Assembly (NCBI GenBank): GCA_019745975.1
Contig: JAIESQ010000011.1
Coordinates: forward strand, 8,433-72,432
Origin: Pirellulales bacterium
Lineage (GTDB): Bacteria > Planctomycetota > Planctomycetia > Pirellulales > JAEUIK01
Length of the DNA stretch: 64,000 bases
Reading direction: 5' to 3'
Below the pieces are notes generated by a model. It saw nothing but the letters and a program-made list of their open reading frames with translations, searched no databases and was not told where the DNA came from. The position numbers and the translations under genes were made by a program. This document shows, one piece after another, positions 4,025 to 40,485 of the stretch. Within the stretch, counting starts at the first letter, position 1; each line of letters begins with the position of its first letter.

Positions 4025-5908
4025 CTAATCCCACCACCAGCGATCGCGATCGAGCGCGGCAGGCGCGGCTTGCTGGCGCGCGTTGTCGAGCCTTGCGCCG
4101 CCATCGGCCAGCGCGTCCTCGCTCAAGTGCGGCCAAGGATCGGCATGAATGCCGCCGCTGACGCCGGCCACGTAACGACGCGCGCCGGCCCGCTGGCTGG
4201 CGGCCACGGTTTCGACCGCGCGCGGCACCTCGGCCGATTCGGGGAGATAGCCGCCATCGATCCCGAACCAGGCGCGGTGCCAGCCGGCGCGCTCATCGAG
4301 CCGCTGCGAAGTCACCAGCGCTCCGACGAGTTCCAGCGCGAAGAGGTTCTCGAGCTCGGCATACACCGGATACCTGGCCGCCAACTCGGCGTAGTGCTCG
4401 TTGAAGTTGGCCGCGAAGCGCTGGTTCAATTCATCGGCGGCGCCGGTCGGCACGCGGCGCCCCGTGGCGTTGAGAAACTCGTTTTCGCCTTGCAATCGCA
4501 CGGCGATGCCGCGCAAGGCGAACGCTTCGCGGGCGCCATCGCTTTCGACCGCTTCGCAGGCGAGCGTGAACCACCAGCGCAGCACATCGAGGGCTGGCAC
4601 GGCGGATGCATCCTCGCGGGCGACAATCTCCAGGTAGCTCGGCACGCCGGCCACGCCCTGCTCGATTCCCATGCCGATCAGCTTCATGTGATAGTCGGCG
4701 GCGACGAGCGTGCGGGCCGCGGTCGTGCGGCCATCGATGCCGAAGACCTCGATCGTCTGCAGGCCGACCTTGCGGCGCAACTGTTCGAGCTGCTGCTTGC
4801 GCCCCGCCGGCTTGCCTTGGCCTGCGGCGCCGTCGAGATACGCCTTGGCGGCGGCTAGCCCTTCAGCGGATGGATTGATCGTGCAGCCGAGGATGTCGCG
4901 CGAGCGCTCCTGATTGTGACGCCAGAGGACGACGAGATCGTCGAGCCGCAGACAGGGTCGGCCGGTCGTTTCGCTCACGGCGCGACCTTCGGCGTCCGTG
5001 GTCCACCCGGCGGCTGGGCCGGCAATCACCAGATCGCGCGAATCCGGATAGAGGAGCACGTAGTCGATGCGCTCCAGCCCGGCCAGCGCGCGCTGGGTAT
5101 CGCTCGCGCCGCGCCCCAGCGCGTGCCCCAGTTGCAGCGCGCGTTCGAGACGCGGCAGCGACACCTTGCGCAGCTTCGACGCGCGACGAACGTCTTGCGG
5201 CCCCGCGACCACGGCCGCGTCGCGCCGCAGGGCGACGAGATCGGCGCGGGCAGGCGACTTAGTTGCCCGACGCAGCACTCCCTCGGCGTCGACGAACACG
5301 CCATTGCGATACGATTCGATGGCGCCTTGCCCGCCGACTTCTTCCCAGGTGGTCGGGGCGATGGTCGACGTAATTAGATCAATTAGGCTGGTGAAGTCGG
5401 CTTGCACGCCGCCCCCTTGCGCGCCGGGAGGCGCGGCGGGCGCCGCGCCTGGGGCCGCGAGTCCACCAGGAACACCGACCGGCGCGCCGAACGGCACTCG
5501 GGCGTTCTGGCCTGGGAAGGCGCCGATTTGCGCCAAAACCGTCGAGCGATCGAGGTCGTCGTCGAGCAGAGCGACCGTTTCGATTGCCGCATTGCGCGCG
5601 CCGGCGTGGGCTTGCGCGGCGGCCAATTGCGCGAAGCGGGCGTTGCGGTCCGCGGCTGGAGACTTTTCGATGAGCTGCCGCGCCAGGCCGAATTCGCCGG
5701 AAGCGAGGTACTCAGCGAACTTGTCGCCTGGCGCATCGGCCCGCGGCGTGTCATCGCCGGCAAGCGCCACCGCAGGCAACGCGAGCGCAAACAGAACGAG
5801 AAGCAGTTGCAAAATCTGGATTGGGTGCCACTGCTGGCTTGCCCAGCAGTGCAGCGCTCGATACAGCACTGCTAGACGAGCTAGCAGTGGCATACGACGC
5901 CGGTTCAT
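4025..5908 (-). CDS. DUF1598 domain secreted protein
   Basis: Signal peptide; ADFTSLIDLITSTIAPTTW, ADYHMKLIGMG and RWWF motifs typical of planctomycete DUF1598; start at ATG 5908 inferred. Confidence 0.8.
   Translation of the reverse strand: MNRRRMPLLARLAVLYRALHCWASQQWHPIQILQLLLVLFALALPAVALAGDDTPRADAPGDKFAEYLASGEFGLARQLIEKSPAADRNARFAQLAAAQAHAGARNAAIETVALLDDDLDRSTVLAQIGAFPGQNARVPFGAPVGVPGGLAAPGAAPAAPPGAQGGGVQADFTSLIDLITSTIAPTTWEEVGGQGAIESYRNGVFVDAEGVLRRATKSPARADLVALRRDAAVVAGPQDVRRASKLRKVSLPRLERALQLGHALGRGASDTQRALAGLERIDYVLLYPDSRDLVIAGPAAGWTTDAEGRAVSETTGRPCLRLDDLVVLWRHNQERSRDILGCTINPSAEGLAAAKAYLDGAAGQGKPAGRKQQLEQLRRKVGLQTIEVFGIDGRTTAARTLVAADYHMKLIGMGIEQGVAGVPSYLEIVAREDASAVPALDVLRWWFTLACEAVESDGAREAFALRGIAVRLQGENEFLNATGRRVPTGAADELNQRFAANFNEHYAELAARYPVYAELENLFALELVGALVTSQRLDERAGWHRAWFGIDGGYLPESAEVPRAVETVAASQRAGARRYVAGVSGGIHADPWPHLSEDALADGGARLDNARQQAAPAALDRDRWWWD
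5822..5895. repeat. REP family B doublet (REPIN-like) inside the 5' end of the DUF1598 gene
   Basis: GGGTGCCACTGCTGGCTTGCCCAGCAGTGC followed by GCACTGCTAGACGAGCTAGCAGTGGCATAC. Confidence 0.85.
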
Positions 5909-6230
5909 CGCCGGTTCTGAAACGGCCTCAAGCAATTGCGAGATCGCGATGCACCAGCGGCCCGATTGCGGCCGCGAGTTGGTCACCCGATTCGATCGCT
6001 GCGCGCAGCCGGCATCCGCTCGAGAGCGTGCCATGGGAGATCTCCTCGTTCCGGTGTTCCCTGGGCGCGGCTTATCAAAGTCAGCGATTCGGTCCGGCAT
6101 CGCGGAGGCCCGCTTCCGCGATGCCGGCACAGCAACCGACCTAAGGCCAACGCGCCCGTCGCTAATCGTCGCACTAGCGGCTAGGATGCGTCAAGCAAAT
6201 TGCCGGAAATCCGCCCGACGAGCGACCGTG

Positions 6231-6698
6231 ATGAGCCAGCCCCAACGCCGCTTTGACAAGGAATCGCTGTTACAATTCGCCAACGACCTGGCTTTTTTCA
6301 AGCTGATCGGGCTGCGGGTGGTCGACCTGGGGCCGGGGTACTCGAAGTGCGAGATCGACTTCCGCGCGGACCTTTGCCAGCCGGCGGGCATCCTGCACGG
6401 CGGGATTACCGCCACGCTGATCGACACCGGCATCGCCCATTCGCTGCTGATGACCGAGGCGTTCGAGCGCATCGGGGCCGAAGGGGGCTCGATGGTGTCG
6501 GTCGATCTGCGGATCAAGTTCTTCCGCCCCGTTTCCGAGGGGCATCTGATCTGCGAATCGACGATCCCGCGGCTCGGCCGGCAGATCGTGCACGGCGAGA
6601 GCGTGGTGACCAACGCGGCGGGCAAGGAAATCGCCCGCGGCGACTCGATCTACATGTTCGTGCCGCGGCAGCAGCTCGCGCGGTCGGCGGAGAAGTAA
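6231..6698 (+). CDS. PaaI-family thioesterase
   Basis: QPAGILHGGITATLID hot-dog motif, SVDLRIKFFRP. Confidence 0.9.
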   Translation: MSQPQRRFDKESLLQFANDLAFFKLIGLRVVDLGPGYSKCEIDFRADLCQPAGILHGGITATLIDTGIAHSLLMTEAFERIGAEGGSMVSVDLRIKFFRPVSEGHLICESTIPRLGRQIVHGESVVTNAAGKEIARGDSIYMFVPRQQLARSAEK

Positions 6699-6711
6699 TC
6701 GGCGTTTGCTG

Positions 6712-9012
6712 CTACGCCGGTTCCATGGCGGGCTCGGCGGCGGGCACATCGGCCGCCGCGGCTGGTTGCGTCACTTTCGGCGGCTTCACGAAGCAGACGA
6801 TCAGCGCCGGCAGCATCACCAGGTCGCCGGCGATCGCCATCGTATAGGCCGCGCACGACAGCCCGGCGAACAACCTGCTCGACGGCATGGCGCTGGTGAG
6901 CACGCTGCCGAATCCGACCAAGAGCACCAAGGTGGTGGTGAACACTGCCGAGCCAACTGCCAAAAAGCTGCGGCGGATGGCTGCCCGCACGTCGCCGTCG
7001 ATCACCAGCTCGCGGCGAAAGCGATTCAGAAAATGGATTGTGTCGTCGACAGCGATCCCCAGGCAGATGCTGAACACCATCACGCTGGTCATCTGCAGCG
7101 AGCGGCCAGTGACGACCAACAGCGTCGAAATGCCCACCAGCGGAAAGATGTTCGGCGGCACGCTGATCGCGGCCAGTCGCAGCGAACGAAAGCCCAGCGC
7201 GATCGAGCCGAAGATCGCCAGCGAAGCGCCGAGCAAGCTCGAATTGAGCGACTCGATCATTTGATAGACGTTGCGCGAACCGACGACCGCCGTGCCGGTG
7301 AGTGTGAATTTAAGGTCAGGGTAGCGCTTGCCAAGCGCGGCGAGCTGAGTTTCGATGCGGGCAAAGACGGGGCGATTCGTAGCGATGCCCGAGTCGGGGA
7401 GCCGGGCCACGACCAGGGCGCGGCGGATGTCTTCGCGGACGTAGCGATTGCGGACGTCGGCCGGCGCCAGTTGCAGCAGCGGCACCCGGAGGGCCAGGTC
7501 GCCTTCGGGGCCGGGGAGTGCCGCCAGTAGCCCCAATACCGAGAGCGGGTGGTGCACGCCCGGCTCGCTGCGCATGACATCCTCGGCAGCGCCCAGCGCA
7601 CCGAGCACCACGGGGCTGCCGAGCGTGAGTCGCTCGGGCCACTCGACGAGGACGAACGCTGAGAGAGTGCCGCCGAACGCCGTGTCGCAGCGGCGCAGCG
7701 CCACGTACGATTCGTCGTTGCGCGGGATCATTTCGAGCAGTCGGTTGTCGGGCTCGAGCCAGAACATCGAGGTCGCCAGCAACGCGGTGACCGCGATGCC
7801 ACCGATCGTCACCGGCCAGGCGTGATCGACGATCCAGTCGATGTAGCGCTGGAAGTAGGCGAAGTTGCGCGTGAAGAAGTCCTGCCCGTGCGCCGCGCGC
7901 ACGTGCTCGCCGAGCCAGGTGCTCGCCAACAGCGGAATCAGCGAGAGCACGGCGATCATGCTGAGCATCGAGCCGCCGGCGCAGGCCAGCCCGAAGCGGC
8001 GAATGATGTCGACTTCGGCCAGGGCCAACGAGCCGAAGCCGATCGCCGTGGTGCTCGACGTGAGCAAGAGCGCGATGGTCAAGTGCCGCACGGCCGCGCG
8101 GCTGGCATCTTGGCACGACATCCCTTCGGCCAGCCCGAGCCGGATGTCCATCATCAAGTGCATCGAATCGGCGAAGCCAACTACCATCACCAGCGTGGGG
8201 AGCATCGTGTTAATGACGTTGAGCTTTTCGCCGACGAGCCCCAGCGCTCCCATCGTCCAGAAGGCGCCGAGGATTGGCGCCGAGGCGACGATCAGCGCCG
8301 ACCAGACCTGGCGAAAGAGAAAATAGGCCATCAACAGCGCCAGTACAGCGCCAACAATAATGAACTTGCCCGTCTCGCGCGGCACCTGATTGAAGATCTG
8401 CACGCGAATGCCCGGCACGCCCGTCAACTCGACGCGCAAACCCGAGTCGCGGGCGACTTGCCGGGCGACGTCGTGCAGGCTGTCGACGACGGGTTCGATA
8501 TCGTGGATGGCCTCCAGGTCGCCATCGAGCCGCACGATCACCAGCGCCGTGCGCGCGTCGGGTGAAAGCACCTGGCCGCGCACCAAGGGGTGTGCCAGCG
8601 CGCGCTGGCGCGCCGTTGCGAAGCGCTCCGGCGGTGCGTCGGCCGGCGGCAGCAGCGACTCGGCGCCCCCTGGGCCGAAGGAGACGACGTCGCCCAAGCT
8701 GCGCACGCTGGAAACGCCAGGGATTTGTTTGGCGCCATCGACAAGCTGGCGGATAGCCCCTGCGCCGCGCGGGGTAAACAAATCGCCACCGTCAATCACC
8801 AGCAAGCAATCGTTGTCGTCCGACTCGAAGTCGTCGAGAAACTCGAGCAGTTGGGCGTAGTCGGCGTTGTCGGTCTTGAAGACGGAGCGCGGCACGTCGT
8901 CGAGCTCGAGCCGGAAGACGCCCACGATCGACAGCGCCGTGAGCACGACGACGAGCGCTGCCACCCAGCGGCGATGCGTGATGTACCAATTGGCGAAGGC
9001 CGCGGGGTGCAA
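6712..9012 (-). CDS. MMPL/RND-family lipid exporter
   Basis: Two 6-TM repeats; GFADSMH and GIAVDDTIHF motifs. Confidence 0.9.
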   Translation of the reverse strand: MHPAAFANWYITHRRWVAALVVVLTALSIVGVFRLELDDVPRSVFKTDNADYAQLLEFLDDFESDDNDCLLVIDGGDLFTPRGAGAIRQLVDGAKQIPGVSSVRSLGDVVSFGPGGAESLLPPADAPPERFATARQRALAHPLVRGQVLSPDARTALVIVRLDGDLEAIHDIEPVVDSLHDVARQVARDSGLRVELTGVPGIRVQIFNQVPRETGKFIIVGAVLALLMAYFLFRQVWSALIVASAPILGAFWTMGALGLVGEKLNVINTMLPTLVMVVGFADSMHLMMDIRLGLAEGMSCQDASRAAVRHLTIALLLTSSTTAIGFGSLALAEVDIIRRFGLACAGGSMLSMIAVLSLIPLLASTWLGEHVRAAHGQDFFTRNFAYFQRYIDWIVDHAWPVTIGGIAVTALLATSMFWLEPDNRLLEMIPRNDESYVALRRCDTAFGGTLSAFVLVEWPERLTLGSPVVLGALGAAEDVMRSEPGVHHPLSVLGLLAALPGPEGDLALRVPLLQLAPADVRNRYVREDIRRALVVARLPDSGIATNRPVFARIETQLAALGKRYPDLKFTLTGTAVVGSRNVYQMIESLNSSLLGASLAIFGSIALGFRSLRLAAISVPPNIFPLVGISTLLVVTGRSLQMTSVMVFSICLGIAVDDTIHFLNRFRRELVIDGDVRAAIRRSFLAVGSAVFTTTLVLLVGFGSVLTSAMPSSRLFAGLSCAAYTMAIAGDLVMLPALIVCFVKPPKVTQPAAAADVPAAEPAMEPA

Positions 9013-9166
9013 GGTTTGAAGTCTCGCTGGCAGGTAGCGCGGGTTTTCGGGCGGAGCAAAGGCGGGAAGGCGTGGCGCGCCTGGCGGGGCAGGTTCTGGC
9101 AGCCCTCGATTCTATCGATTTGCAAGTTTTCGACCACAGCGGCAGACCTGCAAAGTCTAAACACGA

Positions 9167-9447
9167 GGGGGACAGGTACGAATGGCATCAAGTTAGTACT
9201 AAGTCGATTCGCCACAGGGCTGAAGCAGTGCTGTAGCAGCACGCTTGCATCAGACCGCTGTCGCGATGATTCTCGGGTTTCGCGCGCGGACATGGTTCGA
9301 CGAATCTGCTATCGCAGCAATGCTTAACGAAACTGTGCACAGTATTTGCGCTTAACTTGATGCCATTCGGGACAGGTACATGTTTTCGGCCGACGTGAGT
9401 TGGCAAGGAATGACTTTGGCGAGCCGAAAAATGTACCAGTCCCCGAC
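9167..9447. repeat. Family C palindromic repeat (GGGGACAGGTACAT...ATGTACCAGTCCCC), interrupted by the MITE
   Basis: Near-identical uninterrupted copy at 40405-40485. Confidence 0.9.
9179..9369. mobile_element. 191-bp non-autonomous MITE, IS4-like ends
   Basis: Perfect 17-bp terminal IR CGAATGGCATCAAGTTA; 9-bp target duplication GGACAGGTA at 9170-9178 and 9370-9378; no transposase. Confidence 0.85.
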
Positions 9448-9586
9448 TTTGCAGTTCTGTTTTCGACCACAGCCCAGTAGTAGCCGCTTGCGGCCGTGGA
9501 TGTCACAATAGCCAGACCCGCACAAGCTGCCGGTGGTTTTGTCAGCCACAGCTTGCATTGAACCCACCAATCGGAGCTCGACCGCC

Positions 9587-10999
9587 GTGAGACTTCTTTC
9601 GCCTGCTTGCCAGAATCTGATCGCGTCTTGGTTGGTTGCTGCACTCGCGTTGCTCGTTGTCAGTCGCCCGGCGCTGGCTGCTCGGCCCGCGACCGTCGCG
9701 CCGGCCGACGCGCTAGCAGCCTACGTCGCCAAGGCCGACGACAGCTATCGCTGGGAGAAGCGGCAGGAGCGCGAACTGTCGGGGGTGAAGTTCGTCGAGC
9801 TGCGCCTCGTGTCGCAAACGTGGAAGGACATCGTCTGGAAGCATCAGCTTTGGATCGCGCGGCCCGCCGAAGTGGCCGATGCCTCGCAAGGGGTGCTGGT
9901 GATCTCGGGGGGCGGCTGGAACGACGAGCTCGACAAGCCGGTCGATCCAGCCAAGGCGTCTGAAGCCAAGTTGCCGGGCGAAGCGGCACTGTTAGCCCAA
10001 GTGGTGCGGCAGGTGAAGGCCCCGGTGGCACTGTTGTCGCACGTGCCCTTTCAGCCAGTGTTCGATGGGATGACCGAGGACGAAATCATCGCGTACACCT
10101 TCGAGCAGTATTTGAAAACGCGCGACCCTGAATGGCCGCTGTTGTTGCCGATGGTCAAAGCGGCGGTGCGGGCGATGGACGCCACGCAGGAATTCACCAA
10201 GAAGGAATGGCAGCTCGATGTCAAAAACTTCACGGTCACCGGCGCGTCAAAGCGCGGCTGGACCACCTGGTTGACCGGCGCGGTCGATCCGCGGGCGACT
10301 GCCATCGCGCCGATTGTGATCGACATGCTCAATGGCCCGGCGCAAATGAAGAACCAGATCGCCAGTTGGGGCAAGTATTCGGAGCAGATCGAGGACTACA
10401 CGCGCCGCGGCATTCAGCAACAGATGGACACGCCAGCGGGCCACGAGCTGAGCGCGATGGTCGATCCCTACAGCTATCGCCACAAGCTAGTGCAGCCGAA
10501 GCTGCTGGTGATGGGGACGAACGATCCGTACTGGTGCCTCGACGCCTGCAATTTCTATTGGGGCGATCTGAAAGGTGAGAAGCACCTGCTCTATGTACCG
10601 AACAAAGGGCACGGGGTCGACGATTTTGGGCGGCTGCTGGGGACGATTGGCGCCTTCCATCGTCAGGCCGCCGGCCAGTTCAAGCTTCCCGATTTGAAGT
10701 GGGACTACGATTCGAGCGACGAGAAGACCACGCTCACGATGACGTCGGACGTTTCGCCGCAGAAGGTCCAAGTTTGGCTGGCCACGGCGCCGACCAAAGA
10801 CTTCCGCGAATCGAAGTGGGTGTCGCAGGATGTGGCGGCCGCCGATGGCCGGTTCGTGCACGAGCTGACGGTCCCCAGCGTCGGCTATGCGGCGATCATT
10901 GGCGAGGCGGTTTATCGCGTCGATGGCCCGCCGTTCTACCTGTCGACGAACGTGCGGATCGTCGGCGGACCGAAATCGGACGAGGCGGGCGGGAAGTAG
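9587..10999 (+). CDS. PqaA-like (PhoPQ-activated pathogenicity-related) alpha/beta hydrolase
   Basis: SQTW, GASKRGWTTW, VDPYSY, GTNDPYW, PNKGH motifs; signal peptide; start uncertain (9533 or 9587). Confidence 0.88.
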   Translation: MRLLSPACQNLIASWLVAALALLVVSRPALAARPATVAPADALAAYVAKADDSYRWEKRQERELSGVKFVELRLVSQTWKDIVWKHQLWIARPAEVADASQGVLVISGGGWNDELDKPVDPAKASEAKLPGEAALLAQVVRQVKAPVALLSHVPFQPVFDGMTEDEIIAYTFEQYLKTRDPEWPLLLPMVKAAVRAMDATQEFTKKEWQLDVKNFTVTGASKRGWTTWLTGAVDPRATAIAPIVIDMLNGPAQMKNQIASWGKYSEQIEDYTRRGIQQQMDTPAGHELSAMVDPYSYRHKLVQPKLLVMGTNDPYWCLDACNFYWGDLKGEKHLLYVPNKGHGVDDFGRLLGTIGAFHRQAAGQFKLPDLKWDYDSSDEKTTLTMTSDVSPQKVQVWLATAPTKDFRESKWVSQDVAAADGRFVHELTVPSVGYAAIIGEAVYRVDGPPFYLSTNVRIVGGPKSDEAGGK

Positions 11000-40404: not shown

Positions 40405-40485
40405 GGGGGACAGGTACATGTTTTCGGCCGACGTGAGTTGGCAAGGTCTGACCTGGGTGAGCCGAAAAATGTACCAGTCCCCGAC
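40405..40485. repeat. Family C palindromic repeat, intact copy
   Basis: GGGGGACAGGTACATGTTTTCGGCCGACGTGAGTTGGCAAGG...GAGCCGAAAAATGTACCAGTCCCCGAC. Confidence 0.9.

Follow-up and report, generated by a model that had tools for sequence, protein, structure and literature searches.

The intergenic region between two divergent genes of this organism, one encoding an MMPL-family transporter (6712..9012, minus strand) and the other a PhoPQ-activated pathogenicity-related (PqaA-type) protein (9533..10999, plus strand), holds pairs of direct and inverted repeats enclosed one within another, raising the question of how many mobile elements they represent and how one came to lie inside another. The window, i.e., the whole stretch of 64,000 nucleotides that was analysed, lies on contig C193 of the organism's draft genome (G000; 6.98 Mb, 204 contigs, 63% G+C), in which repeats may be collapsed, and two other species of the genus (G001 and G002) were used as sister genomes. 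The naming of the flanking genes as MMPL and pqaA in the original prediction agrees with Pfam matches to PF03176 (88.4 bits) and PF10142 (384.1 bits), respectively. The coordinates of the PqaA-type gene run from the first possible start, and conservation in the sister species starts near 9588. The repeats form a composite of 333 bases, inserted 113 bases from the start of the MMPL gene and about 115 bases from the conserved start region of the PqaA-type gene. Upstream of the MMPL gene, a 701-residue open reading frame (ORF) with a DUF1598 domain (Pfam, 87.7 bits) occupies 4025-6130 on the minus strand. No Rfam family was detected between 9000 and 9600 at E values up to 1, and a scan of 8950-9650 for sigma-70 promoters and terminators returned 0 sites, where the sigma-70 consensus may not fit planctomycete promoters.

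Four repeat pairs, all of them contained in the original prediction, define the locus: a perfect inverted repeat at 9179-9195 and 9353-9369, a direct repeat around it of 11 bases (GGGACAGGTAC, 9169-9179 and 9369-9379), an outer inverted repeat at 9143-9157 and 9445-9459 with 14 of 15 bases complementary, and a perfect 15-base direct repeat at 9126-9140 and 9459-9473. They had been assigned to three nested layers. The nesting of an element in a palindromic repeat, here referred to as family C, is borne out, yet the third layer is not, the outer repeat being the family C terminus; the structure is very probably one of two nested miniature transposons. Read from the left, it begins with one copy of the 15-bp family C target duplication (9126..9140), followed by the left part of family C (9141..9179, plus strand), which comprises the terminal inverted repeat at 9143-9157 and an arm ending in GGGACAGGTAC, bases 9169-9179 of which double as the left copy of the duplication made by the inner element. 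This inner element, a MITE of 189 bp whose ends are those of an IS4-family IS, occupies 9180..9368 (plus strand) and is bounded by perfect 16-bp inverted ends (9180-9195 and 9353-9368). To its right lie the second copy of its 11-bp duplication within family C (9369..9379), the uninterrupted form of which is found at 40408-40418, the right part of family C including the right terminal inverted repeat at 9445-9458 (9380..9458, plus strand), and the right copy of the 15-bp duplication (9459..9473). Both family C parts were delimited from these repeats, an alignment of 33 copies and counts of the arms.

A BLAST search with the 191 bases enclosed by the predicted 17-bp ends against the G000 genome recovered the further copies that had been anticipated, yielding 10 full-length copies, each on a contig of its own. 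All 191 bases are the same in eight of them (100% identity), a ninth agrees across the inner 189, and the tenth carries a single mismatch; with 9 of 10 copies identical over 189 bases, the repeats of the inner element cannot be chance. The copies also correct its boundaries, for which 17-bp ends and a 9-bp target duplication had been proposed. The outermost left base is T, not C, in the copies on C173 and C201, the outermost right base also differs on C201, and 11 identical bases flank the 189-base core on both sides in 10 of 10 copies. Therefore, the element spans 9180-9368, with 16-bp ends and an 11-bp duplication, and the earlier figures arose from one base common by chance to target and end. 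The duplication reads GGGACAGGTAC in two copies (C114 and C193) and GGGACTGTCCC in two others, while GGGACACGTAC, GGGACAGGTCC and GGGACAGGGAC, all three family C-borne, and GGGACAGTCCC, GGGACGGAGAT and CCCCCTCTGGT each occur in one copy. The element is a MITE: its ends are identical to those of an IS, it is too short for a transposase, and its 10 copies have 11-bp duplications. In a set of 41 genomes from the order, counting G000, matches were confined to G000, apart from one weak 63-base match in G002. Its predicted fold (-74.9 kcal/mol; ViennaRNA with RNA parameters and no shuffle control) was not taken as evidence. The MITE copies are identical, whereas family C copies differ from one another by 5-15%, showing that the MITE insertions are younger than family C.

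Public sequencing runs give a limited view of the occupied site. Thirteen runs are listed, none recorded as RNA. In four of them, compared as contigs, no junction skipping the MITE or the whole composite was found, a comparison uninformative on rare empty alleles. A single contig of run X1, which may be the source sample itself, spans 8700-9208 without difference, so the occupied state is present in that run. Summed over the public runs, sequencing depth is higher on the MITE and family C than on their flanks, which fits repeats and is no measure of copy number.

The inner element had been judged non-autonomous and compatible with the IS4 family, and a full-length IS with identical ends bears this out. 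On contig C116, a further pair of perfect 16-base ends, the same as those of the MITE, lies 1717 bp apart (6346-8062; locus L001) and encloses a transposase gene, now split. The 421-residue ORF of this IS matches the Pfam domain DDE_Tnp_1 (PF01609, 81.5 bits, cut-off 23) and the NCBIfam model “IS4 family transposase” (NF033592, IS4_1, 175.7 bits, cut-off 115). Its translation contains a Y-(2)-R-(3)-E-(6)-K spacing in the stretch YRLRWTIETCFGHLK, invariant in 10 aligned relatives, the most distant of which shares 66% identity with the first sequence; PMC2266710 gives this spacing as the defining signature of the IS4 family. As judged from its translation, the IS belongs to the IS4 family. Its end reads GAATGGCATCAAGTTA, with AATR at bases 2-5 and WTW at bases 14-16, and the putative placement in the IS4 subgroup is based on end signature, size and duplication. 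Transposase relatives, as seen in the best 120 matches in the protein database, are single ORFs of 448-452 residues. In the C116 copy, the gene is broken after about residue 19, with the first 20 or so residues encoded at L001 2113-2051 and the remainder from 1861. The interrupter is a second MITE of 195 bp (L001 1863-2057) with inverted ends of about 23 bp and a 9-bp duplication; subtraction of these 204 bases from 1717 leaves an IS of 1513 bp. The IS itself is flanked by 7 matching bases of 11.

The second MITE is unrelated to the 189-bp MITE and has three identical copies in G000, each with a different 9-bp duplication, at C116:7662-7856 (the L001 copy), C52 (about 4183-4377) and C201 (about 114024-114218). 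The C116 locus is in fact a true three-level nest of family C, IS and second MITE. A search for a partner of the second MITE returned a diverged end fragment on C85 with no adjacent transposase, the three ORFs there having no Pfam match. The sole full-length IS in the 204-contig draft carries the split gene. Another stretch, C62:1-77 (L120), is identical to IS positions 40-116 and then diverges at a contig edge; a second IS copy exists there, truncated, rearranged or unassembled. The 189-bp MITE and the IS have 18 and 22 terminal bases in common at their two ends; beyond these the similarity is weak (64 and 68 identical columns of 95), and the MITE is therefore not a simple deletion of the C116 copy.

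To place these insertions in a wider set, one genome per species was scanned, giving 113 stretches that encode relatives of the transposase. Eighty of them were retained, nearly all from Planctomycetota MAGs, among them Pirellulaceae, Planctomycetaceae, Thermoguttaceae and Phycisphaerales. Element ends, placed by the conserved terminal motif, could be set on both sides in 55 of the 80 loci and delimit elements of 1405-1534 bp. Among these 55, 35 are flanked by perfect 11-bp duplications, one by a 10-bp duplication and 19 by none, three of the 19 differing at just 1-2 of 11 bases. The reconstructed targets converge on a palindromic consensus, G-G-G-n-C-n-G-n-C-C-C. Counted on 34 unique reconstructed sites, which for MAGs include related sites within one genome, G is found at position 1 in 23, position 2 in 24 and position 3 in 18, C at position 5 in 27, G at position 7 in 30, and C at positions 9, 10 and 11 in 19, 25 and 28, respectively. 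The flanks are rich in A on the left (21, 26 and 15 of 34 at positions -4, -3 and -2) and in T on the right (15, 21, 18 and 16 of 34 at positions +2 to +5). At least 4 of the 6 triplet positions are matched in 24 of the 34 sites, versus 8% expected from base composition. The 10 MITE targets of G000 itself carry G in 9, 9 and 9 copies at positions 1-3, C in 10 at position 5, G in 8 at position 7 and C in 8 at position 11; one copy, on C201, sits in a target outside the consensus. G000 contains 56 instances of the perfect palindrome GGGAC[A/T]GTCCC (112 counting both strands), where about 9 are expected from base composition, and 3 of the 56 carry the MITE.

In several of the MAGs, all IS copies lie at one position of a palindromic repeat specific to that genome. 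Such single positions are seen for L080, L081, L089, L090, L094 and L095, all from one Phycisphaerales chromosome, and for L060 and L071. In place of a duplication, some of these copies have halves in reverse complement on their two sides, which an inversion between two copies would be expected to produce. At L021, in a Planctomycetales MAG, the target continues on the right flank of the IS with …CCCCGACTTTGCAGT, resembling the right end of family C, which suggests from this one flank that family C-like elements may occur outside the genus.

Within G000, the same habit centres on family C, the repeat for which a preference had been proposed. Five of the 10 MITE copies (C114, C156, C170, C181 and C193) share with the IS a single insertion point, identical to the base, in one particular family C arm, and all six have the same orientation. 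After removal of the MITEs in silico, the minimal motif GGGAC.G...C is present at 1142 sites on both strands of the genome, of which 75 are followed by a family C-type stretch. Five of the nine motif-matching MITE insertions fall in that context (p = 1.2e-4 under uniform use), showing that the preference for family C exceeds what the minimal motif provides and upholding the proposed targeting.

Two other accounts of the same pattern dispense with targeting. One takes the family C–MITE composite as the mobile unit, the five copies descending from a single nest. It would explain why C114 and C193 carry the same 11-bp duplication and why the composites on C156 and C114 are 97-98% alike to the present one over about 295 bases. 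However, GGGACAGGTAC, GGGACACGTAC, GGGACAGGTCC and GGGACAGGGAC differ between loci and match within each locus, and strong divergence of the family C parts on C170 and C181 goes together with 100% identity of their MITEs, as fits independent insertion into diverged family C copies. The full-length IS, moreover, occupies the same family C position, and in other genomes relatives behave likewise towards different repeats. Taken together, these observations make a mobile composite very unlikely.

The other account attributes the association to survival, not choice, with insertion at random and persistence in harmless repeats. Intergenic repeats are plausibly neutral landing places and 5 of the 10 MITE copies do lie outside family C, yet survival hardly accounts for an exact base position and orientation kept in 6 of 6 family C cases, for 9 of 10 targets that begin with the same five bases, or for the same consensus in the 34 sites from other genomes; the identity of the MITE copies also leaves little time for selection. 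Selective persistence is highly improbable as the source of the pattern, and target choice by the transposase remains our preferred reading. The earlier notion that such elements serve one another as safe landing sites would be a further rationale; what the insertions show is a choice of target directed by sequence.

How far that choice reaches beyond the target bases is a separate matter. All seven asymmetric targets carry the element in one orientation, and the five family C-borne MITEs and the IS all use the same one of two nearly identical arms. The transposase might accordingly read some asymmetric feature, be it an extruded family C hairpin, the direction of replication or a subterminal site differing between the two ends, an idea we consider rather doubtful. 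If it were right, and taken with the variable 8-15-bp duplications of family C and its missing transposase, the genus would harbour a small ecosystem of mutually dependent miniature elements, following rules unlike those of textbook IS4 elements.

The receiving element, family C, was characterised from 33 copies of at least 60 bases, aligned with 60-base flanks. Its conserved unit reaches from CAGGAGAACTGCAAAGTC to the complementary sequence and so exceeds the 81-base copy at 40405. In length, family C measures about 115-125 bp; it is a long hairpin with 18-bp inverted ends on most copies and carries no gene. The left arm is present in 22 of the 33 copies, the right arm in 23 and both arms in 21, and these 21 pairs are 100-119 bp apart; in 4 of the 33, a MITE or IS end stands at the expected place of the left arm. 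These counts and the fixed spacing identify the outer inverted repeat as the normal family C terminus, and no case was found of it being independent of the family C core. The second copy in the window (40405..40485, plus strand), which alignment and arm counts show to have both outer arms missing or degenerate, had been cited as the empty site of a middle layer; it is indeed free of the MITE, yet as an atypical, arm-less copy it does not represent the intact element.

A separate outer element, made up of the CAGACCTGCAAAGTC-type inverted repeat and the 15-bp duplication, which would have received family C and then the MITE, can draw on this arm-less copy as a sign that the core can occur alone and on a right arm unrecognisable in 10 of 33 copies, yet it is largely refuted and extremely improbable because the arms adjoin the core directly with a constant spacing (21 pairs), the left arm is present in 22 of the 29 copies whose left side is free of a MITE or IS, no arm pair was found to enclose anything other than a family C core, and no duplication lies between arms and core. 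The nest is thus best described as family C with a MITE in its left arm, and the 15-bp repeat, once assigned to the outer layer together with the inverted repeat, is the target duplication made by family C. In G001 and G002, compared as had been suggested for this locus, the orthologous intergenic regions are empty: they lack the whole composite, the window minus 9141-9473 aligns colinearly to both, and the 15-base sequence is present there once, in diverged form. Hence, two sister species preserve the site with one copy of what became duplicated.

Other family C copies behave similarly. Direct repeats 8-15 bases long, whose start lies about 8 bases beyond the arm core, flank 6 of 27 anchor pairs (two loci being counted twice), versus 1.5% of 702 mismatched flank pairs used as control. 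At the present locus, the 15-bp repeat overlaps the consensus ends by 1-4 bases more than the repeats of other copies do. For the family C copy on C185, the G002 site is empty with one copy of the 11-base repeat; the element on C200 is also absent in G001, where the alignment is poor. G002 also has family C, with about 30 matches, as does G001 in a more diverged form. With terminal inverted repeats, target duplications and empty sites in relatives, family C is a MITE-like mobile element with target duplications of variable length, 8-15 bp. A long element with family C ends that could act as its autonomous partner was not found in G000, where four long-range arm pairs have no terminal structure. 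An identity as a REP/REPIN moved by a RAYT was rejected, as duplications are present and no Y1_Tnp gene adjoins the element; G000 has 15 matches to the Y1 (IS200/RAYT-type) domain PF01797, 14 of them above cut-off, and none adjoins family C by coordinates. In G001, the region orthologous to window positions 9013-9590 (L014, on contig C73) carries an unrelated palindromic insertion of about 170 bases, slightly upstream of the family C spot in G000, showing that the same intergenic region was hit independently in that species.

These findings suggest the following history. Family C would first have inserted into the MMPL/PqaA-type intergenic region, duplicating 15 bp of target. Much later, the 189-bp MITE would have entered the left arm of that copy, duplicating 11 bp (GGGACAGGTAC). 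It was probably moved in trans, by a cut-and-paste reaction, by the DDE transposase of the matching IS, given that MITE and IS have identical ends, duplication length and target position. The transposase would make staggered cuts of 11 bp and prefer G-G-G-n-C-n-G-n-C-C-C with A-rich and T-rich flanks, presumably recognising sequence rather than hairpin shape. The family C arm offers a good match to this target in about 38 copies, and this match would explain why half of the MITE copies and the IS lie at one family C spot. As a whole, the explanation by two elements, with an IS4-type MITE inside family C, is in our view very likely correct. The data show its anatomy, copy numbers, duplications, empty sites, transposase family and target consensus, and what is known of the IS4 family leads us to infer the mobilisation in trans, the cut-and-paste chemistry and the recognition of sequence rather than hairpin shape.

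In a phylum that has received little study, the findings put names to two undescribed families of miniature transposons and to the element that probably drives them. They also mean that mobile DNA, not regulatory motifs, accounts for the repeats in this divergent promoter region and in about 40 further intergenic sites. The identical MITE copies mark a very recent burst and would be useful for strain typing. The literature consulted on planctomycete MITEs and REP-targeting IS contained no description of the IS or MITE families, and both MITE families appear to be undescribed so far.

IS231A is said, in work by Hallet from 1991 and 1994, to favour the terminal inverted repeat of another transposon, Tn4430. 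That preference would be the same kind of nesting as the MITE in family C. Among the closest known systems is the IS4 subgroup of De Palmenaer, Siguier and Mahillon (2008), for which Table 1 of PMC2266710 lists sizes of 1400-1650 bp and duplications of 10-13 bp; the present IS, at 1513 bp, with AATR/WTW ends, an 11-bp duplication and the Y-2-R-3-E-6-K spacing, resembles its members, and its relatives have a single ORF of about 450 residues. According to that paper, copies of some subgroup members lie at one position of a palindromic repeat, and it makes no mention of a planctomycete member (0 occurrences of “planctomyc” or “rhodopirellula”). IS231A of the Bacillus cereus group, likewise an IS4-family element, duplicates 11 bp of a target in which five bases separate a G triplet from a C triplet (PMC2577343, Table 1), as seen in this clade, so that the IS231A-type rule would hold for an IS4-subgroup clade across Planctomycetota. 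Nevertheless, IS231 belongs to another subgroup, its ends beginning with CAT (PMC2266710, Table 1) and those described here with GAATG. Non-autonomous derivatives of IS231A, the MIC231 cassettes, are moved in trans by the IS transposase, as reported in PMC6199540; they carry passenger genes and measure 0.7-3 kb, whereas the present MITE is empty and 189 bp long.

A second parallel is provided by REP-targeting IS such as ISRm22, an IS4-family element of Sinorhizobium meliloti described by Tobes and Pareja (2006). According to PMC1525189, all or most copies of such IS lie at a fixed point of a palindromic intergenic repeat with a palindromic consensus, and some have imperfect duplications ascribed to recombination between copies, both as in the elements described here. 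In contrast, ISRm22 makes 6-bp duplications, belongs to subgroup IS4Sa and targets REPs (PMC1525189), while the target here is a MITE with duplications of its own, and just 5 of 10 MITE copies sit in the repeat. General understanding of IS4 elements is left unchanged by these findings. In being short and gene-less, with IS-derived ends, a target duplication and near-identical intergenic copies, the elements resemble other bacterial MITEs, nested ones included, and differ from them in nothing essential. Collectively, the IS and the two MITE families add new members to well-known kinds of ordinary selfish DNA.
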